Below are positions 9,104-25,676 of a DNA stretch of 64,000 bases, piece after piece. This stretch comes from an uncultured Gemmatimonadaceae bacterium (lineage in GTDB: Bacteria; Gemmatimonadota; Gemmatimonadetes; Gemmatimonadales; Gemmatimonadaceae). The DNA lies in NCBI GenBank assembly GCA_963761305.1, contig CAVXGK010000001.1:1408001-1472000 (forward strand), written 5' to 3'. A program made the translations under genes and the position numbers. The notes below the pieces were generated by a model, which had not been told where the DNA came from, ran no database searches, and saw only the letters and a list, made by a program, of their open reading frames with translations. How positions within the stretch are numbered: position 1 is the stretch's first letter; each line of letters opens with the position of its first letter.

Positions 9104-9516
9104 GCGGTTTCGTCTCCGCCTTCGTCGCGCATCGCGTCCCACCAGCGGCGCACCGGCGGGGCGCCGCGTCGTTCCTCGATCAAACGGTCGAGCAGCGCTT
9201 TCACGTCGCCGATCGGGGTCTCGCCGAGCGCGTCGCGAGCGGCGTCTTCGGTCGCGCCGGAGGCGAGGTAGTCGCTCTCGAGATGTCCTTCCGGCGTCTG
9301 CGCACCGATGCGCGCCCACTTGATGAAGAGAAAGAACGCGCGCCAATCGTCGCCGGCGGGTTCTGCCGCGCGTTCAACCATGATCTCCACGCTGTACGAG
9401 AAGCCATCGATGCCTTCGAACGCCGCGGGCCGATCGTGCACGGCCGCGTAGCCGCCGATCGTGGACTCATCGCCCTTGGTGTGATCGGGCGGACGATACC
9501 GCGCGTGCGACATCAT
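9100..9516 (-). CDS. Conserved hypothetical protein
   Basis: 3' part of ORF 9100..10128 with normal composition; 4-bp overlaps with both neighbours. Confidence 0.7.
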   Translation of the reverse strand: MMSHARYRPPDHTKGDESTIGGYAAVHDRPAAFEGIDGFSYSVEIMVERAAEPAGDDWRAFFLFIKWARIGAQTPEGHLESDYLASGATEDAARDALGETPIGDVKALLDRLIEERRGAPPVRRWWDAMRDEGGDETA

Positions 9517-10451
9517 CTCTTTCGCCTGCCGAACGCTTCGCGAATCACGCTCCCCGTGATGAACGCGACGTTCGCCGGCCGCTCGGCCAAGCGGCGCATG
9601 AGATACGGATACCACTGCGTGCCGAACGGGACATAGACGCGCATGCGGTAGCCGTCCCGCACGAGCTGCTCCTGCATGTCGCGCCGGACGCCGTACAGCA
9701 TCTGAAACTCGAATCTCGAACGGTCGATCTGATGCTCGGCGACATACCGCTTGGCGTCGTCGACGATCCGCGGATCGTGCGTCGCGATACCCGGATAGTT
9801 GCCCTTGTCCAACAGCATGCGCATGCACAAAACGTAGTTCCGGTCGACCTCTTCCTTTTCGGGAAACGCCACGGACGCCGGCTCCTTGTACGCGCCTTTG
9901 CACAGGCGCACGCGGCAACCGAGCTGCACGGCGCGTTCCACGTCCGACCGCGTCCGGTACAGGTAGCTCTGCAGCACAATCCCGACGTGATCCTTGTAGG
10001 CCGGATAGAGGCGGTCCGCGAACAGATTGAGCGTGCGCTCGGTGTAGGCGCTGCCTTCCATGTCGAGCCGCACGAACGTGGAGAGATCGCGCGCGCGGTC
10101 GAGGACGTCGTGCATCACGGAGATGCACAGCTCCTCCGAGATGTCGAGGCCCATCGCCGTGAGCTTGAGCGACACGTTCGCGTCGAGCTTCTTCTGATGG
10201 ATGCGGTCGAGCACGGCGAGGTACTGGGCGCCGGCGGCGCGCGCCTCGCGTTCGTTCGTCACGCTCTCACCGAGCAGGTCGAGCGACGCGGAGATTCCCT
10301 TCGCGTTCAGCGCGGCGACGGCCGTGACCGCTTCGTCCAGCGTCTCGCCGGCCACGAACCTGTTCGCGAATCGTTTCGCCAGCCGGTTGTTGCGAACGAA
10401 GCGAAAGACCCGCGGCCGGTTGGAGAGGTACAGCAGGGTGGACCGCAACAT
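9513..10451 (-). CDS. Monofunctional proline dehydrogenase
   Basis: RFVAGE, LDLLGE, VRLDME, VRLCKGAYKEP, ATHD, EFQMLYG, YVPFG, RRLAERPAN. Confidence 0.95.
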   Translation of the reverse strand: MLRSTLLYLSNRPRVFRFVRNNRLAKRFANRFVAGETLDEAVTAVAALNAKGISASLDLLGESVTNEREARAAGAQYLAVLDRIHQKKLDANVSLKLTAMGLDISEELCISVMHDVLDRARDLSTFVRLDMEGSAYTERTLNLFADRLYPAYKDHVGIVLQSYLYRTRSDVERAVQLGCRVRLCKGAYKEPASVAFPEKEEVDRNYVLCMRMLLDKGNYPGIATHDPRIVDDAKRYVAEHQIDRSRFEFQMLYGVRRDMQEQLVRDGYRMRVYVPFGTQWYPYLMRRLAERPANVAFITGSVIREAFGRRKR

Positions 10452-12304
10452 CAATCGCGCGGCGCGTGCGACTCGAGCGTCACGGGCTTGGTGATGCGCA
10501 CGATCGGGAAGTCGGCGTGCGCCGCGAGAATGCCGTCGAGGAACGACCACTGCGCGAGGCCGTCTTCCGACTCGGGCTCGAGCAAGTAGAACGCGGCGAG
10601 GCCGCGCGGCTGCCCGGCACGGACGACGTAGCTCTTGGCCGGCAGCGTGCGCGACGCGGGCACGCCCCAGTGTCCAGTGACATCCTTGAGCTCGCGCGCC
10701 GTCTCGGATCGTCCGCGGTCGATCACGCTGTCGACGGCGAACGCCTGCACCGTGGCCGACGCCGGCGCGCCGAGCTGCTCGACGGCGATTCCATGGATTT
10801 TGAGGATCGGCAGCAACGCGGCGGCGGTCGTCGAGTCGAACGCGTAGCCGAACGGCAGCGTGGATGTGAGCGTCGGCGTGAACGACGCCACCACCGGCAT
10901 GCGAACCAGTTTCACGACGCCGATTCGCTGGCGATTGCCGAGTCCTGCCTCGCGTTTCGTGGAATCGGTGAGCGGTACGACCACCTCGACGCGCACGTCT
11001 TCGATGCGCGTCGTGTCCATGCGCGACTTGAGCGACAGCGGCGGCGAGCTGCCCGGCTTCGCCGCCCACGACGCGACCTTGGCGTCGCCGGCCGGGCCGA
11101 GCGCGCGAATCTCGCGGCCGTGCTGGGCAACGTACGAGAGGATCTCGCTCACGAAGTCGTAGGTCGATGCGACGCGACGCGCGAACGGATCGTGCGAGAA
11201 CGCTTCGCTCAGAATCGCGAGGCGATTGCGCAGGCCGTAGTAGTTCGTGCCGTAGCGCGCGAGCGATTCGTAGGTCGAGAACGCCCAGCCCTTGGATGGA
11301 ATGGAGTCGGCGATCATTTGCTCGAGGCCGGGGCCTCTTCCACCGAAGCCGCCACCACCGCCGCCGCCACCCGCTCCACCCGCGCCACGACCGGCCGCGC
11401 GTCCGGCGCTGTCGGGCGGCGCGCCGCGTCGTCCGCCGGCGCCCCGGGCGCCGCGGGGAACGTCCGTGCGGCTGAAATCGCCGTAGTCCTGGATGTAGAA
11501 CCCTTCGCGGTCGAGCATCCGCTTGCGAATCTCGGCCATCATGCTCGATGAATACGACAACACGTTGACTGCCGTCGGCGTGAGCGGCGGCGCATAGGTG
11601 AGCGCGTAGCCGTGGATGCTGCCGTCGGTGGTGTGGAGATCCATGAAGAGATCCGGATTCCACTTATTGAGCATTTCGAACGCGCCTTTGGTCTCCGGCG
11701 CGTCGGCGCCGATGTAGTCGCGATTGAGATTCCAGCCCGACGCGTTTTGCCGCGTGCCGACGAGCTCGGGTCCGTTCTGCGCGCCGCGATTGCGCGCCTG
11801 CGGTCCCCACTTCTCGTTGCCGTCGGCGTTGTAGATCGGCTGCACAATGAGCACGATCGAGTCGAGCACGTTCTTGTGCTTGTCGAACAGGAGGTCGCGC
11901 AGCAACGACTGCATCGCCTCTTTGCCTTCGACTTCACCGGCGTGGATGTTCGCCTGGATGTACGCGATGGGGCGGCCGAGCCGGCGCGCTTCGGCCGGCG
12001 TCGTGACCAGCGGCCGCGACGCGATGACGTACGGCAGCTCGCGTCCTTCGATCGTCTTGCCGATGGAGCCGGTGGCGATCTTCGCGCCGAGCAGCTTCAG
12101 CGAATCGATGAACGTGACGACGTCGTCGTAGTGCGACGTCTCGGCGAAGTTGGTACGTTCGGCGCGCGTGAGCGGCCGTTTGCCGACGAAGCTCTCGAGC
12201 GTGTATTTGCTCTTGGTCGGAATACTGTAGTTGTCGACCTGCTGAGCGACGCAGGGCCACGCTGACAGCAGGAGCACGGCCCCGAACGACGCGGCACGGC
12301 GCAT
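10451..12304 (-). CDS. Secreted M14 family zinc carboxypeptidase
   Basis: Signal peptide; HAGE (HxxE), NADG, NLNRD, DLH motifs. Confidence 0.88.
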   Translation of the reverse strand: MRRAASFGAVLLLSAWPCVAQQVDNYSIPTKSKYTLESFVGKRPLTRAERTNFAETSHYDDVVTFIDSLKLLGAKIATGSIGKTIEGRELPYVIASRPLVTTPAEARRLGRPIAYIQANIHAGEVEGKEAMQSLLRDLLFDKHKNVLDSIVLIVQPIYNADGNEKWGPQARNRGAQNGPELVGTRQNASGWNLNRDYIGADAPETKGAFEMLNKWNPDLFMDLHTTDGSIHGYALTYAPPLTPTAVNVLSYSSSMMAEIRKRMLDREGFYIQDYGDFSRTDVPRGARGAGGRRGAPPDSAGRAAGRGAGGAGGGGGGGGFGGRGPGLEQMIADSIPSKGWAFSTYESLARYGTNYYGLRNRLAILSEAFSHDPFARRVASTYDFVSEILSYVAQHGREIRALGPAGDAKVASWAAKPGSSPPLSLKSRMDTTRIEDVRVEVVVPLTDSTKREAGLGNRQRIGVVKLVRMPVVASFTPTLTSTLPFGYAFDSTTAAALLPILKIHGIAVEQLGAPASATVQAFAVDSVIDRGRSETARELKDVTGHWGVPASRTLPAKSYVVRAGQPRGLAAFYLLEPESEDGLAQWSFLDGILAAHADFPIVRITKPVTLESHAPRD

Positions 12305-12369
12305 GAACGAATCCCCGGCGGTTGGACGGGGAATTGTACCCGATCGAGTCGTGGCGACGCTACTCTGAA

Positions 12370-12990
12370 TTACTCGGACGGCTTGCCGTTCGTGGCGCCG
12401 CGCTGGAGGAGACCGCGCGCGCGCGTCTGCGCGGCCACGGTGGGGTCGGCGCCGCGGTCGATGTCCGCGCGCACGTTGCGCTGAAAGAGCGCGAACTCCT
12501 GGTCCTTCACGCCCGACCGCTCCAGCTGGATGACGAGGTTCGTGGCCGTCGGCGCGTCGATCTGCAGTCCGATCAAGTCGGTGAGCACAGCGAGCGGCAT
12601 CGTGACGGGACGCTTGCCCGCGGCGGCACGGACGCGCGCCAAGTCGTGGTCGGACACACCCGCTTCGATCGCCGTCGACGCCGCTTTGATCTCGTCGGCC
12701 GAGGCGTTGGTGCCCAGGACCGCGCGCGCCCTGGTCATGCGCACCCGGAGCTGCTGCACCGCGGTGACGATCTTGGGACCGTCGGAACCTTTGGCGGCGC
12801 CTTCGAGCGCTTTGTCGACGAGAGGCGCCGTGGGGAGCTTCGACGCGCGCGCCGAATCAACGATCGCATCGACCGCCAGTTGGGTGGGCTTGTCGAGACG
12901 AGCCACCAATCGCGGATCACCGCTGGCCTGCGCCGCGGCGACTCGCGCGACGAGCGAGAGCGCCGTCACGATGCGCAGAGACGCCTTCAT
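12370..12990 (-). CDS. Secreted hypothetical helical protein (third gene of ECF module)
   Basis: Signal peptide MKASLRIVTALSLVARVAAAQA; overlaps upstream gene by 4 bp. Confidence 0.75.
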   Translation of the reverse strand: MKASLRIVTALSLVARVAAAQASGDPRLVARLDKPTQLAVDAIVDSARASKLPTAPLVDKALEGAAKGSDGPKIVTAVQQLRVRMTRARAVLGTNASADEIKAASTAIEAGVSDHDLARVRAAAGKRPVTMPLAVLTDLIGLQIDAPTATNLVIQLERSGVKDQEFALFQRNVRADIDRGADPTVAAQTRARGLLQRGATNGKPSE

Positions 12991-13568
12991 TTTTCTTCTG
13001 GGACCACGATTGCCGAATTCGGAAGCCCGTAATCGTTGTCCACCACGCGCGGCGCAGTCGGATCGGCGACCCACACGCTGTCGTCGACGACGAACGAATA
13101 CCGATGATGGCCGACCGGAACCGGCGCCGTCACCGACCACACGCCACCGCCGCGATGCTGGGCCTGATAACCGGCGTGCTTCGCGTCCCAGCCGTTGAAG
13201 TCGCCGACGACGGCGACCTTTTTCGCGTCGGGCGCCACGAGCACGAACTGCACGCGCTGCGGCTGCGCCTTGTTCTGCGCCGGGAAGAGCGCGCTGGCGA
13301 TCGGTTTGGCGGCCCGGTCGATGTCCACCGCGGCGTGCATCGCGCCGAGCACGGCGAACAACGCGAGCGACGCGGCGAGCAGGCCCCACGTCAGCGGCGT
13401 GACCGTCACCGTGCGCGGCGTCGTGAGACGCACCCACAGCTTGATTCGCTCGTGACCGGGCAACCGACGCACCGCGGCCATCACCCGCGCGTCGAATGAC
13501 GCGCTCAAGCGCACCGGCGCGCGAAGCACGCGCGCGATTTGGCTGACCTTCACATCGTCATCAGACAC
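12987..13568 (-). CDS. Single-pass membrane protein with C-terminal CBM48/AMPK-beta-like glycogen-binding domain; probable anti-sigma factor
   Basis: TM segment, then VQFVLVAPDAKKVAVVGDFNGWD...GVWSVT...YSFVVD..WVADP; GAGGTG SD before GTG 13568. Confidence 0.8.
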   Translation of the reverse strand: MSDDDVKVSQIARVLRAPVRLSASFDARVMAAVRRLPGHERIKLWVRLTTPRTVTVTPLTWGLLAASLALFAVLGAMHAAVDIDRAAKPIASALFPAQNKAQPQRVQFVLVAPDAKKVAVVGDFNGWDAKHAGYQAQHRGGGVWSVTAPVPVGHHRYSFVVDDSVWVADPTAPRVVDNDYGLPNSAIVVPEEK

Positions 13569-14139
13569 TGTGCACCTCACTCAGCAGCTCGCGCAGACGT
13601 TCGCACGCGCGCATGACACGCATCTTGAGCGCCGAAACCCCGACGCCGGTGAGCAGCGACATCTCGTCGTAGCCCATTTCCTCCACATACTTCAACAGGA
13701 AGGCTTCGCGTTGGTCCTGACGCAGTTGCTGCAGGGCGCGATCGATCTCTTCGCGCCAAGCGCTCTGCTCGGCCGGATGATCTTCTGCCGCGCTGAGCAA
13801 CGCCGTCTCGTCCGCCACGAACGTCCGCGCCCGTCGTCCCCGTCGGGCCCCAACTGTTCGACACCGATTGACCAGAATGCGAAACAACCAGGCGCCAAAC
13901 CGTTCGGGGTCCTCGCACTGCCGCAACGACCGGTAGGCCCGCGTGAACGCGTCCTGCAATGCTTCTTCAGCGTCCTCGCGGTTGCCGAGCATGTGAAACG
14001 CGTACCGGGCATACCGGTCGCGATACCGCTCGACCAGCGTACCGAACGCGTCCACGTCGCCGCGCAACACCTGAGATACGACGATTGCGTCCGAGCTAGC
14101 TTCCACGTCGAATGACCTACGGTGATCGGAGAGGGTCAC
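13561..14139 (-). CDS. ECF RNA polymerase sigma factor
   Basis: DAEEALQDAFTRAY, FGAWLFRILVN, YDEMSLLTGVGVSALKMRVMRA; start uncertain (GTG 14139 or 14106). Confidence 0.88.
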   Translation of the reverse strand: MTLSDHRRSFDVEASSDAIVVSQVLRGDVDAFGTLVERYRDRYARYAFHMLGNREDAEEALQDAFTRAYRSLRQCEDPERFGAWLFRILVNRCRTVGARRGRRARTFVADETALLSAAEDHPAEQSAWREEIDRALQQLRQDQREAFLLKYVEEMGYDEMSLLTGVGVSALKMRVMRACERLRELLSEVHSV

Positions 14140-14213
14140 AATTGCTGTACGTGGTGGTAAATCAGGCACTTGCGGCTGTCGCAGCACTAAGGAATCTCGC
14201 CGCTGCCTCAATT

Positions 14214-16355
14214 CTACCGCGAGCCGGGGTAAAAGCTCCGTCCTGCCGCTGCCATGTCCATCAATAGCCTGGCCGGCTCGAATCGCTTGGCAAATCGTAC
14301 GTTGAGGTCCTCCAACCGTTCTACGACCCGGCTCACACCGACGCTGTCCATGTAACGGAACGGTCCGCCTCGGAACGGCGGGAACCCGACACCGAACACC
14401 GCGCCAATATCGCCGTCGCGGGGTGAGCGAAGGATATCCTCCTCGAGGCAACGCGCCGCCTCGTTCAACATCGCCAACACGCAGCGGTCCGAAATCTCGG
14501 CCTTGTCGATCGGGCGCCGTTCGCCGCCGATGACCGCGTATACGCTCTGGTCGACCGGCCCTTTCGTTCCGTCGGGGCCGTATCGATAGAAGCCGTTGGA
14601 ACCCTTCCGACCGGTGCGGCCAGCCAGCACCACGCGCCGCATCGATTCCGGCGGCGTCATGCGCACGCCGAACGCTTCGGACAGCACCGTCGCGACTCGT
14701 CCGCCGACGTCGATCCCCACTTCGTCGAGCAGCGTGATCGGCCCAACCGGGAAGCCAAAGTCGACCAGCGACTCGTCGATCGTCTCCACCGCCGCGCCTT
14801 CGTCGAGCATGCGGCCAGCTTCGCTCATGTACGCCGACAGCGTGCGCGTCGTGTAGAACCCCGGTCCGTCGTTGACGACGATGACCGTCTTGCCGAGTCG
14901 CTTGCCGTACGCCACCGCGGTGACCGTCGATTGGCGGGACGTCGCCGGCGTGACGATCACTTCGAGCAGCGGCATGCGGTGCACCGGCGAGAAGAAGTGC
15001 ATTCCCAGCACGCGCTCGGGATGGCGCGCCGCTTCGGCGATGCGCGTGATCGGAATCGTGCTCGTGTTCGACGCATACACCGCCGACGCGTCGAGCACCG
15101 GCTCCACTTCGGCGAGCACCTGATGCTTGAGGGCGAGGTCCTCGAACACCGCTTCGATGACGAGATCCACCGCCTCGAATCCCGAGTAGTCGGTCGTCCC
15201 GCCGACGAGACTCATCGCGTCGTCGAGCTGGTGCGGCGTGATTTGCCGCCGCGCCACACGCTCCTGCACGACGCCGCGAATCGCCGCGAGTCCGTGTCCG
15301 ATGCGCGTCGCGTCGGTGTCCTTCAATCGGACGAGCGTTCCCTGCTGGACGGCGATCGCGGCGATGCCCGCGCCCATGAATCCCGCGCCCAGGACGGCGA
15401 GCCGGTCGATCTCACGCGGCTGCGGCGCCGGGTCGGGAACGCCGCGATCCTTTTTGAGCGAGGTGTTGGCGAAGAAGAGAAACACGAGTTGGCGCGAGAC
15501 CTCGGTCATCGCCATTTCGCCGAAGTGGCGTGCTTCTTCGGCGAACCCGTCGCCGTTGCTCGAGTAGCCGGCGACCACGGCGTCGAGCGCGGCGAGCGGC
15601 GCCGGATAGTGGCCGTGCGTTTTTTCGAGCACGCTTTGCCGAGCCTTCTTGAATACCACGCCGCGGCCGATCGGATTGCTCTCGAGGAGCAAGCTCGCCG
15701 GGCCGGCGCCGCGGCGCCGGGCAGGTTTGAGCGCGCCGCTCGCCAGCGCCCGCGCCCGTCCGAGGGCGAGCTCGCCGAGGATCGACGGGTGCACCATTTC
15801 GTCGACGAGTCCCATCTGCAGCGCGCGGCGCGCGCGAATCGTGCGGCCGGTGAGGATCATGTCCAACGCGGCTTGCAGGCCGACGCGCCGCGGCAGACGC
15901 TGCGTGCCGCCCATGCCGGGGATGAGCCCCAGCTGCACCTCGGGCACGGCGAACGTGGTGTGCGGGTGATCGGTGCAGATGCGGTACGCGCACGCCAGCG
16001 CGACCTCCAGGCCGCCGCCGAGGCACGCGCCGTGGATCGCCGCGACGACGGGGACGCGCAGCGACTCGAGTCGCGCCAGGAGATGCTGCCCCGTCCGGCT
16101 GACGCGCTCGGCCTCGCCGGCCGACCGGAGATCCAGAAACTGGTCGATATCGGCCCCGGCGATGAAGCCGTCGGGCTTTCCCGAAATCAATATCATCGCG
16201 TGAATGAGCGTATCCTCATCGACGCGCTGGAACACGTTCTCGAAATCGCCGACCAGGTCGAGGCCGAGCGTGTTGACCGGGTCGTCGCGGCAATCGATCG
16301 TCACGACGAGGACGTCGTCGATCAGTTCGGTGGTGAGGGTCGGCGGCCCGGTCAC
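14214..16355 (-). CDS. fadJ: Fatty acid oxidation complex alpha subunit (enoyl-CoA hydratase / 3-hydroxyacyl-CoA dehydrogenase)
   Basis: FIAGADI, CLGGGLE, PEVQLG, GAGFMG, ASNTS, GMHFFSPV. Confidence 0.93.
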   Translation of the reverse strand: MTGPPTLTTELIDDVLVVTIDCRDDPVNTLGLDLVGDFENVFQRVDEDTLIHAMILISGKPDGFIAGADIDQFLDLRSAGEAERVSRTGQHLLARLESLRVPVVAAIHGACLGGGLEVALACAYRICTDHPHTTFAVPEVQLGLIPGMGGTQRLPRRVGLQAALDMILTGRTIRARRALQMGLVDEMVHPSILGELALGRARALASGALKPARRRGAGPASLLLESNPIGRGVVFKKARQSVLEKTHGHYPAPLAALDAVVAGYSSNGDGFAEEARHFGEMAMTEVSRQLVFLFFANTSLKKDRGVPDPAPQPREIDRLAVLGAGFMGAGIAAIAVQQGTLVRLKDTDATRIGHGLAAIRGVVQERVARRQITPHQLDDAMSLVGGTTDYSGFEAVDLVIEAVFEDLALKHQVLAEVEPVLDASAVYASNTSTIPITRIAEAARHPERVLGMHFFSPVHRMPLLEVIVTPATSRQSTVTAVAYGKRLGKTVIVVNDGPGFYTTRTLSAYMSEAGRMLDEGAAVETIDESLVDFGFPVGPITLLDEVGIDVGGRVATVLSEAFGVRMTPPESMRRVVLAGRTGRKGSNGFYRYGPDGTKGPVDQSVYAVIGGERRPIDKAEISDRCVLAMLNEAARCLEEDILRSPRDGDIGAVFGVGFPPFRGGPFRYMDSVGVSRVVERLEDLNVRFAKRFEPARLLMDMAAAGRSFYPGSR

Positions 16356-17650
16356 GCGCGCTCCACGACCATCGCGTGGCCCAGGCCGCCGGCGGCGCAG
16401 ACGGTCATCAGGCCGAACTGTCCGCTGCGCCGCGCCAGCTCGTTGACCAACGACATGAGGATCCGCCCGCCCGTCGCGCCGAACGGATGTCCGATGGCGA
16501 TCGAGCCGCCCATCACGTTGAGTTTGGCGCGGTCGATCTCACCAACCGGATCGGCAAACCCGGCGCGTTCGGCCCATTCGTACGACGTGAATCCGGCGAG
16601 ATTGCAGAGCACCTGCGCGGCGAACGCCTCGTGCATCTCGACGAGATCCATCTCGGGGAGCGTCAAACCGGCGCGCTGCAACGCGAGCGGCGCCGCGAGC
16701 ACCGGCGCCATGAGCAGCTGTTCGCCGGGATCGACGGCCGCGTACGCATACGAGCGGATGAAGGCGAGCGGCCGGTACCCGAGCGTGCGCGCCCGCTCTT
16801 CGCTCATCAGCAGTACGGCGCTCGCGCCGTCGGTGAGGGGCGACGAGTTCCCGGCGGTCACCGATCCGTAGCGCTTGTCGAACACCGGTTTGAGCGCGGC
16901 GAGCGCGTCGATCGACGTATCCGTGCGAATGCCGTTGTCCGTGGCGAGCGAATCGCTGTACTTCGGCGGCACGTAGACCGGAAACATCTCGCCTGTGAGA
17001 CGACCGTCCTCGGTGGCAGCGGCGGCCATCCGATGCGAGCGGAGCGCGAACTGGTCCTGCGACTCGCGCGAGATGTGGTTGATCTTGGCCATCTTCTCGG
17101 CCGATTGCCCCATCGTTTCGCCCGTCGACGGCTCGGCGATGGCCGGCGTGATCGGCACGAGATCGCGGGGACGAATCGAGCTCACGATGCCCAGCTTCGC
17201 CGTCGTGCTCTTGGCGCGGGAAAGCGCCATCAGTTTGTCGGACATCGAGCGCGAATGGAGAATCGGCACGTTCGACAACGACTCCGCGCCACCGGCGATC
17301 AGGACGTCGTGATAGCCGATGAGGATCTGGTCGGCGGCGTCGGTGATGGCCTGGTTCGCCGACGCGCACGCGCGGCTCACCGTGTACGCCTCACAGCCCC
17401 GCGACAGCATCGGCAGCAGCGAGACCTCGCGCGCGATGTTGGGCGCCGTCACCGCGGGCACGACGGTCCCGTAGATGATGGCCTCCACCAGCCGGCCTTC
17501 CAGGCTCGTGCGCTGAATGAGCTCGGCGACCGCCAGCTTTCCCAGCTCGATCGCGCTGAGGCTTTTGAAGACCGTCCCCGCGCGCGCGAACGGCGTGCGG
17601 ACACCGGCGACGATTGCTACGCGGCGGCCCGACGTGCCGAGGGCTGGCAT
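16352..17650 (-). CDS. fadI: Acetyl-CoA C-acyltransferase (3-ketoacyl-CoA thiolase)
   Basis: PNIARE, SRACASA, HEAFA, GHPFGATG, CAAGG. Confidence 0.93.
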   Translation of the reverse strand: MPALGTSGRRVAIVAGVRTPFARAGTVFKSLSAIELGKLAVAELIQRTSLEGRLVEAIIYGTVVPAVTAPNIAREVSLLPMLSRGCEAYTVSRACASANQAITDAADQILIGYHDVLIAGGAESLSNVPILHSRSMSDKLMALSRAKSTTAKLGIVSSIRPRDLVPITPAIAEPSTGETMGQSAEKMAKINHISRESQDQFALRSHRMAAAATEDGRLTGEMFPVYVPPKYSDSLATDNGIRTDTSIDALAALKPVFDKRYGSVTAGNSSPLTDGASAVLLMSEERARTLGYRPLAFIRSYAYAAVDPGEQLLMAPVLAAPLALQRAGLTLPEMDLVEMHEAFAAQVLCNLAGFTSYEWAERAGFADPVGEIDRAKLNVMGGSIAIGHPFGATGGRILMSLVNELARRSGQFGLMTVCAAGGLGHAMVVERA

Positions 17651-17678
17651 GCGTGGAAACTGGCTTACCTTTGACCCA

Positions 17679-19310
17679 ATGCAAGGTCAGCTCCCGACTC
17701 GCGGCGAGCGATTCGCGGCGCTCGGCGCCCGAGAGTTCGACCTGCTCGTGATCGGCGGCGGGATCACTGGATGCGGCCTCGCGCGCGAGGCGGCGCTGCG
17801 CGGACTGAACGTCGCGCTCGTGGAGAAGAACGATTTCGCGAGCGGAACGTCGAGTCGCTCGTCGCGGCTCATTCACGGCGGTGTTCGGTATCTCGAGCAC
17901 GGACAGATTCATCTCGTCTTCGAGGCGAGCGCCGAACGGCGGCGGCTGCTGCAGCTCGCGCCGCACCTCGTGCATCCGCTCGCGTTTACCTGGCCGGTGT
18001 ATCGCGGCGCCCGCATCCCGCGCTGGAAGCTCGGCGCGGGACTCACGGTGTACGACGCATTGGCGCTGTTTCGCAACGTTCGGCGTCACCGGCGGTTGAG
18101 CGCGCGTGGCGTGCTGGAGCGGGAACCCGGGCTCAGCGGCGAGGGACTGCGCGGCGGTGCGCTGTACTACGACGCGGCCACCAACGACGCACGGCTCACG
18201 CTCGCCAACGCGATCGGCGCATCGGAGCGAGGCGCGGTCGTGCTCAATCACGCGCGCGTCGATTCGCTGATCGTGCGCGATGGGCGCATCGTCGGCGCGC
18301 GCGTCGCGGACGGTCTCTCCGGCCTGCGCACCGACGTACGGGCGAGAGTCGTCGTCAACGCGACCGGCCCGTGGAGCGACGCCGTGCGTTCGCTCGATCC
18401 GACGGCCGAGTCGGCGAGCGGCGCGAAAGCGATGCGCGGAAGCAAAGGCACTCATATCGCCGTTCCGCGCGAGCGAATCGGCAACCACGACGCGCTCACG
18501 CTGCTGTCGCCGGTGGACGGACGCGTGATGTTCGTGCTGCCGGCGGGCGTGTTCGCGATCGTGGGTACCACGGACACGTTCACCACGTCGTCGCCCGATG
18601 AGGTGCGCGCGACCGAAGCCGACGTGGCGTACCTGCTGGCGACGGCCAACCAGTTCTTTCCGCGCGCGGCGCTCACACGGCAGGACGTCGTCGCCGCGTG
18701 GGCCGGCATCCGACCGTTGCTTCCGTCGGCGGGCGACACGCCGGGGGCGGTGTCGCGCGAGCACGCGGTCGCCGTGAGCCGCGGCGGACTCGTCTCCATC
18801 ACCGGCGGCAAACTGACGACGTATCGCGTGATGGCGGGTGCCGTGTTGCGCGTCATGTCGCGCGCGCTCGGAAAAGGGAACGGCTCGGTGAGCGATGCGC
18901 CGCTGCCCGGTGGCGAGGTCCAATCGTTCGTGGAATTGGTCGCCGAGATTTCGCGGGAGACCGGCGACGCGTCGCTGAGTGAGCATCTGGCCGGATCGTA
19001 CGGCTCGCGCTGGCGCGACGTGTGGGCAGAGATCGACTCGTCCGACGGCCGCGCACCGTTGCTCGATGGCCGGCCTTACACGATCGGCGAGCTTCGCTAC
19101 TGCGTTCGGAACGAGATGGCGTGCACGCTCGGCGACCTGCTGATCCGCCGCACGAGGGTCGCCTTCGAGACGCGAGATCACGGCGCGTCGATCGCCGGAC
19201 GCGCGGCGGCGGGCGTCGCGAGTGCGTTGGGCTGGGGTCAACGCGCGATCGCGGCCGCGGAGGCCGCGTATGCCACGGAACTGTCGCGAATCTTTGCAAT
19301 CGAACCGTAG
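17679..19310 (+). CDS. glpD: FAD-dependent glycerol-3-phosphate dehydrogenase
   Basis: GGGITG, DFASGTSSRSSRLIHGGVRYLE, GGKLTTYR; start ATG 17679. Confidence 0.92.
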   Translation: MQGQLPTRGERFAALGAREFDLLVIGGGITGCGLAREAALRGLNVALVEKNDFASGTSSRSSRLIHGGVRYLEHGQIHLVFEASAERRRLLQLAPHLVHPLAFTWPVYRGARIPRWKLGAGLTVYDALALFRNVRRHRRLSARGVLEREPGLSGEGLRGGALYYDAATNDARLTLANAIGASERGAVVLNHARVDSLIVRDGRIVGARVADGLSGLRTDVRARVVVNATGPWSDAVRSLDPTAESASGAKAMRGSKGTHIAVPRERIGNHDALTLLSPVDGRVMFVLPAGVFAIVGTTDTFTTSSPDEVRATEADVAYLLATANQFFPRAALTRQDVVAAWAGIRPLLPSAGDTPGAVSREHAVAVSRGGLVSITGGKLTTYRVMAGAVLRVMSRALGKGNGSVSDAPLPGGEVQSFVELVAEISRETGDASLSEHLAGSYGSRWRDVWAEIDSSDGRAPLLDGRPYTIGELRYCVRNEMACTLGDLLIRRTRVAFETRDHGASIAGRAAAGVASALGWGQRAIAAAEAAYATELSRIFAIEP

Positions 19311-19368: not shown

Positions 19369-19413
19369 CAACAATCTTGGCCAACGACAGAATTCTTGGA
19401 TCAAGATTCTTGT
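19369..19413 (+). promoter_or_regulatory. Three repeated sites CA(A/G)-N5-TTG, probable upstream activator sequences
   Basis: CAACAATCTTGG (19369), CAGAATTCTTGG (19388), CAAGATTCTTGT (19402); AT-rich island about 70-110 bp upstream of a -24/-12 promoter. Confidence 0.6.
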
Positions 19414-19478: not shown

Positions 19479-19494
19479 CGGCACGAACGCTGCT
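19479..19494 (+). promoter_or_regulatory. Sigma54 (-24/-12) promoter
   Basis: CGGCACGAACGCTGCT: GG(19480-81)-N10-GC(19492-93), close to consensus TGGCACG-N4-TTGCW; a sigma54 activator gene lies in the downstream cluster. Confidence 0.75.
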
Positions 19495-19563: not shown

Positions 19564-20154
19564 ATGCGTCGTCGCATTCTTCTCATCGCCAGCGCTTTCG
19601 TCACGGCCATCGCCGCCGCGTGCGTCTCGAGCGATTCACCCGTTTCCCCACCGAGCGCCCCGGCTCAACCGGCTGCGTCGAACGCGAATCTCGCCAACCT
19701 CCTCGGGCTCGGCGGGTCGACCATCGTTACGCCGTTGCTCCGCGCGAAGCCGCTCGAACAATCTCTCTCGGCGTCGGCGACGATCGGCCCGCTCGGTGGA
19801 ACGCTGGCCATCCCGGGGGCGGGCGTACTCGTGGTCGTCCCGCCGTTGGCGGTGTCGTCCGCGCAGAAGATCACCGTCACCGCCGTCGCGGGATCGAACG
19901 TCGCGTACGAGTTCGCGCCGCACGGCCTCAAGTTCAACCTGCCGCTCGTGGTGACGCAGGACCTCTCCGCCACGCAGGCGCGCAAGGAAGGGTTGGTGAG
20001 CCCGCTGTCGCTCTTCGCGGGATACTATCCCGATTCGACGAAGATCACGTCGATCACCGAGATACTGAACGTCAACGTCAACCTGTTGAACCAGGCGGCG
20101 GTGTTCTCGGTGTGGCACTTCTCGGGTTACATCCTGGCGGACGGCCGAGACTAG
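19564..20154 (+). CDS. Lipoprotein with ZU5-like domain and C-terminal HFS motif
   Basis: Lipoprotein signal ending AAAC20; IGPLGGTLAIPGAGVLVVVPP, EFAPHGLKFNLPL, WHFSGY. Confidence 0.75.
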   Translation: MRRRILLIASAFVTAIAAACVSSDSPVSPPSAPAQPAASNANLANLLGLGGSTIVTPLLRAKPLEQSLSASATIGPLGGTLAIPGAGVLVVVPPLAVSSAQKITVTAVAGSNVAYEFAPHGLKFNLPLVVTQDLSATQARKEGLVSPLSLFAGYYPDSTKITSITEILNVNVNLLNQAAVFSVWHFSGYILADGRD

Positions 20155-20178: not shown

Positions 20179-21237
20179 ATGAACCTCGAGCCGATACGTG
20201 GATATGCCGGACAGGCAGCTGAAGAAGCGCGGCGCCTCAGTGAGCTGGCGCGCGCCGCCGGACTCGGTGACTCACCGGACGACGCTGTTCGGTGGCACCG
20301 AGACGCGCTGTCGCTGCTCGGTGCGAGCGAACCGACCACGCTCGTCGCCGACGTGCTGCGTTGGCAAGGGACCGTCCTTCGCGATCGCGGACTTCCTGGC
20401 GAGGCCAATCCTCTCTATCACCGAAGTCTCACACTGTCGCGCGAGCTGGGTTACCAGAGCGGGATCGCCCACGCGCTGAACTGCCTGGGGATCCTCTCGC
20501 TCAACGCCGGCGACCTGGCCGGCGCCGGCGATCTGTTCAGCCAGGCGCTCACGGCTACCGAGTCGTGCGGCGAGCCACGGCTCGTCGGCATGATTCAGCA
20601 GAACCTCGGCGTGATGGCCGACATTCGCGGGAATCCCGCATCCGCGATGGCGCACTATCGCGTCGCGCTGCGAACCTTCGAGGCGGCGAACGACCGCCAG
20701 CAGGTGTGCCGGGTCTTGAACAACCTCGGCATCGCCTACGCCAAGGCCGGGCGCCACGCCGAGGCGCGCGACGCGTACGCCCGCGCGCTCGACATCGCGA
20801 AGGACCGAGGCGAGCTGCTCTTCGAAGGCATCATCGAGGGGAACGTCGCCGAGTTGGAATTGATGTGCGGACACGTGGCCGCGGCACGTCCGTCGATCGA
20901 GCGGGCGCTCGAGATCGCCGAGCGCCGCGGTGACAATGCGCGACGCGCGATCGCGCTCAAGCTCCTCGGCGCGTGTCAGCGAATGACCGGCGACGTGCCG
21001 GCCGCCGAGGAGACGTTGGGCAGGGCCGCGCGGCTCGCCGTCGTGGCCGGGGACGCGTTGACGAGCGCTGAAATCCGCTTCCAACTCGCCTGCGCGCTGG
21101 CGGCGGGCGGCCGCCGAACAAGTGCCGAAGAGACCTGGACCCGCTCGTTGCTCGCTTTTGAGCGGATAGGTGCCCGCCGGTGGGCAGCCAGGGTGAGAGC
21201 GCGATTAACCGCCGGGGAGAACGGACGATACTTCTAG
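20179..21237 (+). CDS. Stand-alone tetratricopeptide repeat protein
   Basis: About 40-aa repeats: ALNCLG, QQNLGV, LNNLGI, EGNVAE; no signal peptide. Confidence 0.88.
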   Translation: MNLEPIRGYAGQAAEEARRLSELARAAGLGDSPDDAVRWHRDALSLLGASEPTTLVADVLRWQGTVLRDRGLPGEANPLYHRSLTLSRELGYQSGIAHALNCLGILSLNAGDLAGAGDLFSQALTATESCGEPRLVGMIQQNLGVMADIRGNPASAMAHYRVALRTFEAANDRQQVCRVLNNLGIAYAKAGRHAEARDAYARALDIAKDRGELLFEGIIEGNVAELELMCGHVAAARPSIERALEIAERRGDNARRAIALKLLGACQRMTGDVPAAEETLGRAARLAVVAGDALTSAEIRFQLACALAAGGRRTSAEETWTRSLLAFERIGARRWAARVRARLTAGENGRYF

Positions 21238-21282: not shown

Positions 21283-22308
21283 TTGCTTCACGACGAGGAT
21301 CGCTCGGCTGAGCCGTCGGACCGCGCACGCGATTTCGGGTTTCAGAACATCGTGGGTTCCAGCCCGCTGCTGCGCGAAGCTGTCAGCCTCGCGATGCAGG
21401 TGGCGGGGACTCGGCGCACGACCGTTCTGCTGATCGGCGAAACCGGAACGGGCAAGGAGTTGTTCGCCCGCGGCATCCACTACGCCGGTACGGCGGCCGA
21501 CGAGCCCTTCGTCGCCATCAACTGCGCGGCGATTCCCGAGGCGCTGCTCGAGTCCGAGTTGTTCGGCCACGAACGCGGCGCGTTTACGGGCGCGCACGCG
21601 CGCAAGCAAGGGCTCCTCGAGCTCGCCGGATCGGGCACGCTCTTTCTCGATGAAGTGCATCACCTGCCGCGAATGCTGCAGCCCAAGCTCCTGCGCGCGC
21701 TGGAATCGCGCCAGGTCAGACGCCTCGGGGGCTTCGAGGAGATCGCGATCAACTGCCGCATCGTCGCCGCGGCGAGCCCGCTTCTCGAGCAGGTGGTCGG
21801 CAGCGGAGAGTTTCGCGAAGACCTCTACTACCGGCTCAACGTCTTCGGCATCACCCTGCCCGCGCTGCGCGACCGTCTCGAGGACATCGAGGTGATCGCG
21901 CGCCATTTTCTCGCGCACGAAACGCGCGAGCACGGAAAGTCCAAGGCGTTCTCGTCGGACGCGTGCACTGCGCTTCGCGTGCACCGCTGGCCGGGCAACG
22001 TGCGCGAGCTGAAGAACGTCGTCGAGCGTGCGGCGATCCTGAGCGGTGATTCCTCGATCGTCCGCGCCGAACACCTGATGATCCAACGCCGCGCCGCTCG
22101 GCAGGCCGCGCCGGACGCGGTCGGCGAGATTCGGATTCCGACGACGGGCAAGCTGCTGGAAGAGATCGTGGCCGAGGCGGTGGCGCTCACGCTCAAAATC
22201 ACCAACGGGAATCAGGCGGCGGCGGCACGGCTGCTTGGCATCTCGCGGCCGACGCTCGCGAAGAAGATGACTCGGCCCGCCGATCCCTCTCGAGTGTCGG
22301 TGGCGTGA
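21283..22308 (+). CDS. Sigma54-dependent transcriptional activator lacking N-terminal regulatory domain
   Basis: GETGTGKE, ESELFGHERGAFTGA, LFLDEV, FREDLYYRL, WPGNVREL, Fis-type HTH NQAAAARLLGISRPTL; GAGG SD before TTG. Confidence 0.93.
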   Translation: MLHDEDRSAEPSDRARDFGFQNIVGSSPLLREAVSLAMQVAGTRRTTVLLIGETGTGKELFARGIHYAGTAADEPFVAINCAAIPEALLESELFGHERGAFTGAHARKQGLLELAGSGTLFLDEVHHLPRMLQPKLLRALESRQVRRLGGFEEIAINCRIVAAASPLLEQVVGSGEFREDLYYRLNVFGITLPALRDRLEDIEVIARHFLAHETREHGKSKAFSSDACTALRVHRWPGNVRELKNVVERAAILSGDSSIVRAEHLMIQRRAARQAAPDAVGEIRIPTTGKLLEEIVAEAVALTLKITNGNQAAAARLLGISRPTLAKKMTRPADPSRVSVA

Positions 22309-23966
22309 TCGCAGGGAACGGCGTCCCCTCCCTCACCGGCGCGGCGTCGTATCTCGTCGCCGAAGCCGAAGCGGCCGAGCGCGCCGGGCAGCGCGAGCTC
22401 GCGCGGCGGCAGTACGAGCGTGCGTTGCGGCTCCTTCGCGAGAGCAGCGCCGCGTCGACCATACTCCGCCGTATCGCGCGTTCGTATCGCGAAGACGGCC
22501 AGCTGGACGTGGCACTCGATTGTCTCGATGCCGCTCTCGGCTCGGCCGAGGCGCACGGCGCGATGTCCGACATCGCGCATGCCAAGAACCTGGCTGGAAA
22601 CATCCTGCTGACGCGCGGCGACTACGCGGCGGCCGAACCGATGTACGCACGCGCCCTGTCACTCGCCGTCGAGTCGGGCGAGCGCCAGCTCGAGGCGATG
22701 ATCGCGCAGAACCTCGGCGTCATCGCCAGCATGCGCGGCGACCGGCTGACAGCGCTCGAGCATTACGCGTCCGGGCTGGTCGTGTATCGCACGCTCGGGA
22801 TGTTCCGGCAGGTCGGCCACGCGCTCAACAACATGGCGCTCGAGTACACGTCCCTGGGACGGCTCGACGAAGCGCAGGCGGCATACGACGAGGCGATCGT
22901 GCATTGCGCCGCGGCGGGCGACGTGCCCAACCGATTGCTCGCGCAGACCAACGCGGCGCATCTGCGCCTGGTTCGCGGCGACGTCGCCGGCGCCGAGACG
23001 ATCTGTCGCTCAGTGCTGGCCGAAGCCACCGACGCGGGCGACGAGCGCGCACTCGGCGAAACGCTCAAGCACATGGGCGTCATCGCCCGGTCGCGCCGCG
23101 AGTACGACGCCGCCGAACGGCATCTCCGCGACGCGTTCGACAGCGCGATGCGGCGCGAGGATCTGCTGCTCGCCGGCGAGACGGCGCGCGAGCAGGCCGA
23201 CTTGTTCGAACGGATGGATAAGAGCCGGGAGACGTTGCAGGCGCTCACGCAGTCCCACCGGTTGTTCACCAAACTCCAATCACAGCGCAACCTCGCCGAT
23301 CTCCAGCAGCGCGTCGCGCGGCTCGAGGAGCGGTTCTACTTCGTCGTCGCGCGGTGGGCCGGATCGATCGAGTCGAAGGACGCGTACACGCTCGGCCACT
23401 GCGAGCGCGTCGCCGACTACGCGTGCGCGCTGGCTCGCGACATCGGCTTCGACGAGATGACGTTGTTCTGGTTCCGCATCGGCGCGCTGCTGCACGACGT
23501 CGGCAAGATCGTGGTGCCGACGGAGATCCTGAACAAGCCCGGGCGGTTGACGCCGGAAGAACGCTTGGTGATGGAACGGCACCCCGCGGCCGGCTCGGAG
23601 ATGTTGGCGGACATCGATTTTCCGTGGGACATCCTGCCGATCGTCCGCAACCATCACGAGCGATGGGACGGCGACGGGTATCCCGACCGCCTGGCGGGCG
23701 AAGGGATTCCGCTCGCGGCGCGGGTCGTCTGCGTGGCGGACGTGTTCGATGCCCTCACGACCGACCGGCCTTACCGAAAAGGATTCTCGCGGCGCGACGC
23801 GTTGGCGACGATGAACAACGATCGCGGAAAGATCTTCGATCCGTACTTGTTGGCGCGGTTCAACCGCATCATCGAGGAGACGCCCGCTACTTCTCGCCGG
23901 CGCCCACGTCGTGGATCGTACGGAGCTCGACGACGCGGAGCTGACGCACCATCGTCGGCAGCCTGA
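22305..23966 (+). CDS. TPR + HD-GYP cyclic dinucleotide phosphodiesterase
   Basis: N-terminal TPRs; YTLGHCERV, LLHDVGK, HHERWDGDGYP, ADVFDALTTDRPYR; GTGA overlap with activator gene. Confidence 0.92.
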   Translation: MIAGNGVPSLTGAASYLVAEAEAAERAGQRELARRQYERALRLLRESSAASTILRRIARSYREDGQLDVALDCLDAALGSAEAHGAMSDIAHAKNLAGNILLTRGDYAAAEPMYARALSLAVESGERQLEAMIAQNLGVIASMRGDRLTALEHYASGLVVYRTLGMFRQVGHALNNMALEYTSLGRLDEAQAAYDEAIVHCAAAGDVPNRLLAQTNAAHLRLVRGDVAGAETICRSVLAEATDAGDERALGETLKHMGVIARSRREYDAAERHLRDAFDSAMRREDLLLAGETAREQADLFERMDKSRETLQALTQSHRLFTKLQSQRNLADLQQRVARLEERFYFVVARWAGSIESKDAYTLGHCERVADYACALARDIGFDEMTLFWFRIGALLHDVGKIVVPTEILNKPGRLTPEERLVMERHPAAGSEMLADIDFPWDILPIVRNHHERWDGDGYPDRLAGEGIPLAARVVCVADVFDALTTDRPYRKGFSRRDALATMNNDRGKIFDPYLLARFNRIIEETPATSRRRPRRGSYGARRRGADAPSSAA

Positions 23967-24369
23967 GATAGGCGATCTCGCCGACCGCTTTGCCGAGCAG
24001 CGCGCGTCCGATCGGCGACGACATCGTGACCTGCCCTTCCTCGAAGTCGATCGAGTCGCCGAAGACGAGATAGTAGGTCTCGCGTCCGCCGGCCTTCTGG
24101 TCCTCGAGGACCACGCGCGACCCGAGGCCCACCCGGTCGTCGGGAATTTGCGACGGATCGATCGCCGAGAGCTTGCTCAAACGCTCGTGCAGCTGCCCCA
24201 GCCGCGCCTGCACGAACTGCTGGCGCTCGAGAGCGGCCTTGTACTCACTGTTCTCGCGCAGATCGCCCATCTCGACCGCTTTCCGAATCTCCTGCGGGAG
24301 CGTGACGTTGAGCTCGTATTGCAGGCGTTCCGCTTCCGCGGCGAGTTTTCGCTTCAGCTCTTCGATCAT
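23887..24369 (-). CDS. greA: Transcription elongation factor GreA/GreB family
   Basis: GDLRENSEY, SSPIGRALLG; start ATG 24369. Confidence 0.9.
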   Translation of the reverse strand: MIEELKRKLAAEAERLQYELNVTLPQEIRKAVEMGDLRENSEYKAALERQQFVQARLGQLHERLSKLSAIDPSQIPDDRVGLGSRVVLEDQKAGGRETYYLVFGDSIDFEEGQVTMSSPIGRALLGKAVGEIAYLRLPTMVRQLRVVELRTIHDVGAGEK

Positions 24370-24452
24370 ATCGCCGGGTCGCGAGCATTTTGAGGATGGT
24401 GAAACGTTGCGCGCCCGGCCGACAGGGCCGGGCGCGCAGTCACAATCCCAAG

Positions 24453-25676
24453 TTACCCCGCGTGCGCGCCGCTGGCAAACGAGGAATCGGATGCCCGGGC
24501 GAACTCGGCGCGCAAACGTTCCATCATGGCGTCGCGGCGGTCGTACAGACGCTTGAGCGGCCGCGCCGCGTGGCGTGCCTTCGCGTACGACGTGAGCAAC
24601 GGCAGCGCGACCGTCGAATCCATGTAGCACACGACCGCGTCGGGCAGCCGGTCGGGATCGATCTTGCCCCAGCTCACCGCCTCGGCGGGCGTGGCGCCCG
24701 AGAGCCCGCCGGTGTCCGGCCGCGCGTCGGTGATCTGCAGAAAGTAGTCGTGCCCCTTCTCGTCGATGCCGAGCACTTCCTGAATCTGCGGCTCGGTCTG
24801 GAGCATGAAGTTCTTCGGGCTGCCACCGCCGCAGATCAGCACGGCCGACTTGCCGCCCGAGCGCTTCGCGTCGAGCACGATCGACGCCGTCTCGTTCACG
24901 TCGAGGTTCGGATCGATCGTGCACTTGTTGCCCTCGAGCGCCAGCGCGGCGACGTTCATCCCGATCGACGAGTCGCCGGGCGACGACGTGTAGATCGGTA
25001 CGCCGGCATTGTACGCCGCCGAGATGAGCGACTTCTGTCCGATGCCGAGGGCGCGTTCGCGCTCGCGCACGTACTTGCCGCAGAGGTTGTGGAACTCGGC
25101 GCTCGACATCGAACGCTGGAATTCCGGGCCTTGAATGACGGTCCGGAAAAAGGCGTCGGTCGACAGCAGGACGTCATAGTCAAAAAAGATGTCGTAGATC
25201 CGCACGACGCCTTCGTCGCGCAGGACGACGTCGGACTCTTGCGGATTCCCGCGGTGCATCGCCAGCCCGAGCCCGAAGTGCGTGTCGTGGTAGAGATTCG
25301 CGCCGGTGGAGATGATCCAGTCGACGAACCCGGCCTCGATGAGCGGAATGAGCGCCGCCATGCCGAGGCCCGCGGGCGTGAGGGCGCCGGTGAGCGTCAT
25401 GCCGACGGTCACGTCGGGCTCCAGCATTTTCTTGGTGTACAGTCCACAGGCTTCACGAAGACGCGCCGCGTTGTAGGCGAGGAACGCGTTGTCGATCAGA
25501 TCGGCCGCCGTCTCGGCGCCGCTGATCGGCGTCGGTTCGATGCGCGGCCCGCGAAGGAACTTGCTGGTCTCGCGGGCGTCGTGCCGCGTGCCGCTTCGCT
25601 CGCGTTCCTCGGCGGCGGCCTTCTGCGCGCCCTTCGGGCCCGCGGCCGATGGTTTGTTGTCGGAACGCTTCGCCAT
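24453..25676 (-). CDS. Deoxyhypusine synthase-like protein (probable homospermidine synthase)
   Basis: [35 protein letters not shown] (catalytic Lys). Confidence 0.9.

Follow-up and report, generated by a model that had tools for sequence, protein, structure and literature searches.

Self-cleavage by bacterial ZU5- and GAIN-like domains is already in print, and as chemistry it is not new. ZU5 autopeptidases were predicted by Zhang et al. in 2012 in large surface proteins and polymorphic toxins of bacteria, where they form part of large polypeptides of the RHS, enzyme or adhesin type (PMC3482391). The MAIN domains described by Brogan and Rudner in 2026, such as that of B. subtilis YfkN, are exported bacterial GAIN-like β-sandwiches with HFS in the last turn; nearly all of those assayed were cleaved, with the cut placed at HF/S by Edman sequencing and the two halves staying associated (bioRxiv 10.64898/2026.05.12.724683). 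MAIN proteins have an average mass of 158 kDa and are built from a signal peptide, a large ectodomain of enzymes or adhesins, the MAIN domain itself and, at the C terminus, a wall anchor. The preprint proposes force release of the two fragments; it states that no signalling is tied to the C-terminal fragment, and whether bacterial GAIN-like domains ever signal through the cut strand is a question that it does not settle. After cleavage of a GAIN or MAIN domain the strand is still held tightly, and the GAIN domain of BAI3 is uncleaved despite its site. The literature cited here also includes PMC8195603, PMC7483925 and PMC3321182.

In RRNPP(A) systems (Rap–Phr, AimR–AimP), the gene of an exported precursor adjoins that of a cytoplasmic TPR protein with a conserved Asn, and the signal is a C-terminal peptide of 5–10 residues (PMC3601992, PMC6458997). 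RRNPP receptors use groove Asn residues to hold the peptide backbone, and Rap pairs an Asp with an Arg at peptide position 2. In Vibrio RcbA/RcbB, a c-di-GMP enzyme is under the control of the TPR domain fused to it, and a second TPR protein of the operon controls that domain in turn; the enzyme is a cyclase rather than a phosphodiesterase, and the abstract names no lipoprotein or peptide (PMC12282931).

Here we analyse a 196-residue lipoprotein encoded in a window of 64,000 nucleotides (the whole stretch of DNA that was analysed) from an uncultured Gemmatimonadaceae bacterium. It very probably shares the chemistry of the MAIN domains without their architecture, having an N-terminal lipobox and a 10-residue tail in place of a large ectodomain and a C-terminal wall anchor. 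As read from the sequence, the N-terminal lipid anchor and the lack of cargo set this design apart; across the family, the piece that a cut would free is a strand of 7–10 residues. The bacterial ZU5 members of Zhang et al. (PMC3482391), unlike this lipoprotein, are parts of large proteins, and the CxH thiol site proposed for them is absent from it: no Cys follows residue 20, and Val-Trp precede His185. With the adhesion-GPCR GAIN domains it shares the fold, an HX/S or T site and a hydrophobic last strand as putative signal; compared with them, it lacks the helical subdomain as well as the 7TM receptor, its strand is untethered and its putative receptor is cytoplasmic.

The new evidence presented here is gene context. 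The best single account of the pairing of lipoprotein and TPR genes, to which we give a probability of roughly 45%, is that the lipoprotein tail may be a stored signal peptide read by the neighbouring TPR proteins. Peptide signalling by such a stored-tail module would be of a kind about which little is known. Provided that the inference is right, its logic is that of RRNPP signalling, of which it is nonetheless no member: the precursor is a folded 18-kDa lipoprotein rather than a 39–57-aa pro-peptide matured by host proteases, its gene comes first, the putative outputs are an HD-GYP protein and a sigma-54 activator, and the host is diderm. No description of the lipoprotein–TPR–HD-GYP module was found in the open-licence PMC and bioRxiv literature. 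The main text of the MAIN preprint has no mention of ZU5, lipoprotein, TPR or Gemmat, and its supplementary tables may list family members.

Architecture and fold of the lipoprotein

The lipoprotein gene (P0001, 196 aa) occupies positions 19564–20154 of the forward strand, which also carries the features that follow. The signal peptide and lipobox (19564–19623) end at Cys20, the sole Cys of the protein and invariant in both family alignments. A Pro/Ser/Ala-rich linker, composed of residues 21–54 (19624–19725) and predicted to be mostly disordered (pLDDT below 50 at residues 6–30 and 33–49), leads into a ZU5-fold β-sandwich of residues 55–196 (19726–20151), in which the motifs IGPLGGTL, VVVPP and FAPHGLKFNLPL start at residues 74, 90 and 117. 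H185-F186-S187 (20116–20124) contains the predicted self-cleavage site F186/S187. The tail from Ser187 to Asp196 (20122–20151), of 10 residues and a computed 1,066 Da, consists of the last strand and a short extension and is, from its sequence and the family tails, a candidate signal peptide. The reading frame, Cys20, the motifs, the HFS position and the tail length are all as the preliminary description, made from the letters alone, had given them.

That description had also proposed a ZU5-like fold, and this assignment holds. The Pfam ZU5 profile (PF00791) scores 24.4 bits against a gathering cut-off of 21, over residues 70–107 and profile positions 1–38 of 97 only, that is, the N-terminal motif. 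No NCBIfam family is matched, and a PDB sequence search with the lipoprotein returned a single weak match, UNC5B (E 0.66). An AlphaFold2 model built from 61 sequences is confident over residues 51–190 (pLDDT ~90–98) and places HFS where strand 178–185 turns into the last strand, 188–193. With this model, Foldseek gave 12 matches at E ≤ 0.001, led by ankyrin ZU5. VIA, which is independent of Foldseek, likewise ranked ankyrin-B ZU5 first (Z 12.3, r.m.s.d. 2.5 Å, 116 aligned residues), with ankyrin ZU5 scores of 12.3, 11.3 and 10.7; UNC5B (8.9 in VIA), ZO-1 and the GAIN domains (6–8) follow in both searches, and the best enzyme outside the ZU5 and GAIN groups reaches 6.5. Lower VIA scores were obtained for CARD8 (6.3), NLRP1 (4.9–5.3) and Nup98 (4.7). 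The lipoprotein shares with the ZU5 superfamily (PIDD, the FIIND of NLRP1 and CARD8, Nup98, ankyrin, UNC5) both a sequence match above cut-off and, in its model, the fold.

The placement of HFS at the scissile position of known self-cleaving domains is likewise borne out. NLRP1 is cut between F1212 and S1213, and F1212A and S1213A are autoproteolysis-dead mutants. In VIA, the range aligned with the cleaved N-terminal fragment of NLRP1 extends as far as model residue 186, which faces chain residue 1212, this register being read from the ends of aligned ranges and not from a full alignment. The range ends at the same model residue against rat NLRP1 chain C, against residue 382 of GPR56, which we take to be the residue at its known cleavage site, and against four more GAIN entries.

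Named relatives of the lipoprotein belong to the Gemmatimonadaceae, and the matches in the ESM Atlas are clusters from Gemmatimonadota, besides one in which 30% of the members carry ZU5. The family profile reaches S-layer, RHS and enzyme-bearing proteins of other phyla, with HF[ST] at the profile end in 21 of 42 long hits. One protein so reached, from Paenibacillus, is anchored in the S-layer and has HFT at the equivalent place (hhalign 94.6%), a connection to the YfkN MAIN domain that is indirect; the close-family profile gives only one weak long hit. Given this distribution and the ZU5 and MAIN precedents, the domain and its chemistry are of a known kind.

Conservation of the HFS site

HFS is kept in 120 of the 120 close homologues listed and in 146 of 150 cluster representatives (the best 150 of 968), which answers the earlier call for a homologue alignment. 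In the four exceptions the query match ends at residue 90–105 of the searched part, and they look truncated or frameshifted. His, Phe and Ser are near invariant among these 150, and the flanking columns vary; H, F, S and G188 are invariant in an alignment of 118 full-length representatives, from which 33 fragments, fusions or odd rows were excluded, at a mean column identity of 27%. HFS within the last 20 residues occurs in only 8 of 15,782 six-frame ORFs of at least 150 aa in the same genome and, given the near-complete conservation in homologues, its placement is not due to chance. The 230 distinct hits in fetched loci read HFS in 218 cases, GFS in 2 and HLS, HYS, HFC, HFT, HVT and QLT once each, the other 4 being fragments or other readings. 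In the 226 intact genes the nucleophile column is Ser (222), Thr (3) or Cys (1); at the level of sequence it holds no residue other than the three able to do self-cleavage chemistry.

On this analysis, the lipoprotein very probably cleaves itself at F186/S187, and if nothing beyond the cleavage is borne out, a known class of domains gains in it a new, minimal member. By analogy with MAIN and GAIN chemistry, His185 would activate Ser187, and an N-to-O acyl shift followed by hydrolysis would leave a new N-terminal Ser; after the cut, the last strand would remain seated in the sheet. The ZU5 domains of ankyrin, UNC5B and ZO-1 are not known to cleave themselves, and HFS could be no more than a structural turn, as in those domains, a reading that draws on ankyrin and UNC5B being the closest solved folds, on the uncleaved BAI3 domain and on some relatives without the site. 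We consider it improbable: the three site residues are near invariant while their flanks are not, the Ser column admits only Thr or Cys as substitutes, and cleavage was the rule among the MAIN domains assayed.

Shear or envelope strain might pull the fragments apart, as suggested in the preliminary description and in the MAIN preprint; the fold and site are those of GAIN and MAIN domains, for which force release is proposed, and the linker, predicted to be disordered, tethers the domain to the membrane. A force sensor needs a handle on each fragment, whereas the C-terminal one has 7–10 residues and no binding domain, and the lipoprotein lacks adhesion domains on both sides of the cut. We hold a role in force sensing to be highly improbable.

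Gene neighbourhood

Three genes on the same strand follow the lipoprotein gene. The first, separated from it by 24 nt, encodes a stand-alone TPR protein (P0272, 352 aa; 20179–21237) in which no signal peptide was seen and which carries an Asn ladder (N101/N142/N182/N222). After 45 nt comes a sigma-54 enhancer-binding protein (21283–22308) with GAFTGA and HTH elements and no N-terminal sensor domain, its AAA domain starting at residue 23. The third gene overlaps the activator gene by 4 nt and encodes a TPR-HD-GYP protein (P0273, 553 aa; 22305–23966), a predicted c-di-GMP phosphodiesterase with intact HD and HHExWDGxGYP motifs and the ladder N95/N136/N176/N216. From inspection by eye, we take the flank at 9513–17650 to hold proline dehydrogenase-like, peptidase, ECF sigma with anti-sigma-like, fatty-acid oxidation and thiolase genes, and the downstream flank at 23911–25676 to hold greA and a deoxyhypusine synthase-like gene; these flanks look like housekeeping genes. 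A domain scan also placed a glycerol-3-phosphate oxidase-type gene at 17517–19310.

The arrangement recurs. Downstream of the lipoprotein gene, 19 close loci hold a TPR-HD-GYP gene in 19 cases, the activator in 18 and the stand-alone TPR gene in 15; among their conserved genes no transporter or membrane protein was seen. For 208 distinct Gemmatimonadota genes with at least 1.4 kb of downstream sequence, taken from the best matches listed rather than drawn at random and including kin that are not independent, the next gene encodes a TPR-HD-GYP protein in 97 and a TPR protein in 71 (168 in total). It is not of this type in 40; a TPR-type gene lies within 2.5 kb in 190 of the 208 and in 18 none does. 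The reverse search started from 20 strong TPR loci not fetched before, and a ZU5-like gene lies directly upstream in 16 of them (15 by profile, 1 by eye); of the other four, one has such a gene 3.6 kb away and in three none was found. Only 12 ORFs in the 5.2-Mb genome match the partner TPR profiles. The family is present in 125 of 301 Gemmatimonadota genomes, or in 224 of 401 with a second profile, both tallies including a few unpublished genomes, which no individual claim made here depends on.

Several loci depart from this plan. In L108, L117, L151 and L203 the TPR and TPR-HD-GYP genes are preceded by ZU5 lipoprotein genes in arrays, of six at most, with differing tails in L108 and L151. At G000:C1:954222-961409 (L134), a 1,578-aa TPR-HD-GGDEF-AAA-TPR gene lies beside that of a sigma-54 activator devoid of a sensor domain, and the upstream side holds no ZU5 gene; the N-terminal TPR of the 1,578-aa product has lost the Asn ladder, and a divergent lipoprotein encoded upstream resembles a solute-binding protein. 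A TPR gene 25 kb beyond the window was rejected as a family partner, being without the ladder in the family alignment; nor did a lipobox pattern recover a lipopeptide there.

Candidate sigma-54 control region

An inverted repeat at 19369–19412 (11-nt arms 19369–19379 and 19402–19412, 91% complementary) is a candidate enhancer for the sigma-54 activator. Nearer the gene, on the forward strand at 19479–19494, lies a sigma-54 (−24/−12) promoter-like site that agrees at 10 of 12 positions with the consensus. Both elements are conserved: at the repeat, boxes resembling AAGAATCTT align across 10 upstream regions, and the GGCA and TGC of the promoter-like site are invariant in all ten. Over the family, 36 of 185 upstream regions score at least 10/12, against 1.6 expected from shuffles. 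A scan for sigma-70 promoters gave none.

This promoter-like site would also suit a lipoprotein through which the sigma-54/c-di-GMP circuit acts on the envelope, in ligand binding or adhesion, with a cut that serves maturation only, a strand that never leaves and a gene linkage that reflects co-regulation. GAIN and MAIN cut products do associate stably, and the tail pattern goes with the fold in general: HF[ST]xY[AV][VI] is also found in unrelated large ZU5 proteins, so the fold alone explains tail conservation. That the covariation described below is not significant in a strict test points the same way. Co-regulation leaves unexplained why two separate ZU5 subfamilies should invariably be partnered by TPR proteins from a single Asn-ladder family, why tandem lipoproteins with different tails precede one TPR gene (for example in L108) and whence the charge pattern at TPR column 103 arises; we regard it as rather unlikely.

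Proposed signalling route

If the tail is a stored signal, the strand would be freed on unfolding or turnover of the lipoprotein and could enter the cytoplasm via an Opp/Dpp-type permease. Release and import together would be the weakest step of the route; the genome holds rpoN and three SBP_bac_5 peptide-permease binding-protein genes, none of the three in the locus. The Asn-lined TPR groove would bind the tail, with tail position 2 as specificity residue. Binding may alter the activity of the TPR-HD-GYP protein and so tune c-di-GMP breakdown, and the stand-alone TPR protein may act in trans on the sensor-less activator and thereby on the operon's own sigma-54 promoter, as feedback. Counting against a stored signal, cut strands of GAIN and MAIN domains stay bound, and nothing hangs on the tail to pull the strand out. 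The preliminary description had named the last β-strand peptide as the output; the TPR, HD-GYP and sigma-54 neighbours favour that part of its proposal, and the peptide output itself is put forward here conditionally.

A wider reading, which we hold to be doubtful on balance, is a phylum-wide diderm peptide signalling in which a GAIN-like domain would make, store and release a 7–10-residue agonist, cytoplasmic TPR receptors, either fused with c-di-GMP enzymes or linked to sigma-54 activators, would decode it, and position 2 would act as a kin or paralogue code. If true, this would be an untethered bacterial counterpart of the adhesion-GPCR tethered agonist combined with RRNPP-like logic, a new peptide-signalling system for an abundant, barely studied phylum and a bacterial origin for agonist-strand signalling. 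The lipoprotein family offers the simplest test case, in that the strand is the sole thing the cut can free and the adjoining genes supply, in variants that match, a candidate receptor whose output can be assayed as c-di-GMP hydrolysis or sigma-54 transcription.

Tail sequences and TPR partners

The model of the stand-alone TPR protein has 17 helices, and its top Foldseek matches are LGN/Pins structures, including LGN TPR–peptide complexes. Rap, NprR, PlcR and AimR are not among the matches listed, out of a total of at least 500; this excludes nothing. The ladder Asn residues recur at 40-residue spacing and are kept in 149, 150, 152 and 137 of 153 partner TPRs, and we infer from this repeat spacing that they face the TPR groove. 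In its model helices and Asn ladder, the TPR partner resembles the cytoplasmic RRNPP(A) receptors with five to nine TPRs and conserved groove Asn. The ladder is also kept in full in two of three further TPR-HD genes for which no ZU5 gene was found. Loss of the ladder as a rule for partner-less TPR-HD proteins was discarded: it is true of one gene in the genome and in part of L276, and not of L269 or L271.

The tails have exactly 7 residues in 157 of 219 cases and follow the pattern S-x-Y-[AIMV]-[VIL]-[AS]-[WY], with 13 residue types at x. In the clade of the window lipoprotein, the Ser start is fixed and the length of the C-terminal extension ranges between 8 and 18 residues, which favours reading from a new N-terminus.

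The charge of tail position 2 was compared with every variable TPR column by phylogenetic contrasts over 146 pairs (153 aligned, minus two mixed tandem tails and five divergent or broken rows). Of 202 columns, the three with the most negative values are 249, 103 and 332 (r −0.43, −0.38 and −0.26; spread 0.09), although 103 and 332 had first drawn attention in a part of these data; among stand-alone TPRs alone the three rank 2, 11 and 4 of 214. For TPR-HD pairs, an acidic residue stands at column 103 with 44 of 48 basic tails and with none of 18 acidic tails, and a basic one with 8 of the 18. Where the loci had played no part in the choice of column 103, it is Glu in 11 of 11 partners of Arg tails and in 2 of 5 others; column 332 was dropped as a specificity residue, with no replication in new loci. 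The signal is mostly one large switch away from Arg, ZU5 column 114 likewise anti-correlates with tail position 2 (r −0.28), and a strict independent-pairs test gave 3.6 concordant and 0 discordant of 8 pairs (p 0.125, not significant). The sequences are suggestive, short of proof, of a charge anti-correlation between tail position 2 and TPR columns, resembling the Asp–Arg pairing of Rap. The lipoprotein of the window is neutral for this pattern, its tail having Gly at position 2 and its two partners Asn and Thr at column 103.

A cell-autonomous sensor of export or folding would have the TPRs bind the C-terminal strand of an unexported or unfolded cytoplasmic precursor. It needs no release or import step and fits relatives that keep the tail and partner without HFS; in the duplicated-tail genes of L095 and L226, moreover, TPR column 103 fits the terminal heptapeptide and not the one after HFS. 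It gives no reason for a catalytic Ser, Thr or Cys in 226 of 226 intact genes, and the fixed Ser start of the window clade, ahead of an extension of 8–18 residues, speaks for reading from the new N-terminus; we consider it quite unlikely. Duplicated tails, with a second S-x-Y heptapeptide after the first, occur at L095:6025-6681, L156:3032-3751 and L226:2681-3481.

Divergent relatives

A second, divergent HFS subfamily is present in the genome (hhalign 94%) and in 33 of 101 family genomes. HFS is found in 25 of its 25 loci, and a GGDEF-AAA-TPR gene adjoins in 16 of the 25. One member, on the reverse strand at G000:C2:2702333-2703064 (L133:3834-4562), is a ZU5/HFS lipoprotein downstream of a GGDEF-AAA-TPR gene.

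The 16 upstream genes reached from the TPR side have HFS in 7, Ser without His in 2 and the site not in place in 7. In 5 of the 7 site-less, deep-branching genes a Pro-rich loop stands before the last strand instead, and all 7 keep the tail and the TPR partner; self-cleavage is thus not essential to the pairing everywhere. For these deep-branching families, the cut would be made by a host protease or would be dispensable. Among the relatives without HFS (L272, L283, L284, L286, L287, L277 and L278), the five with the Pro-rich loop have a tail that reads Arg-Tyr/Phe-[AV]-Leu-Ala-Asp and still precede TPR genes.

Tails of the second subfamily are longer and often contain two Cys (C-D-x4-5-C), which could form a disulfide loop. 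Tandem forms (P0192, P0227, P0251, P0237 and P0145) consist of a lipobox, a second-subfamily ZU5 domain with HFS, a linker and a first-subfamily ZU5 domain with HFS. In these proteins a complete ZU5 domain would be released by cleavage at the first site, an arrangement that recalls the two ZU5 domains of PIDD.
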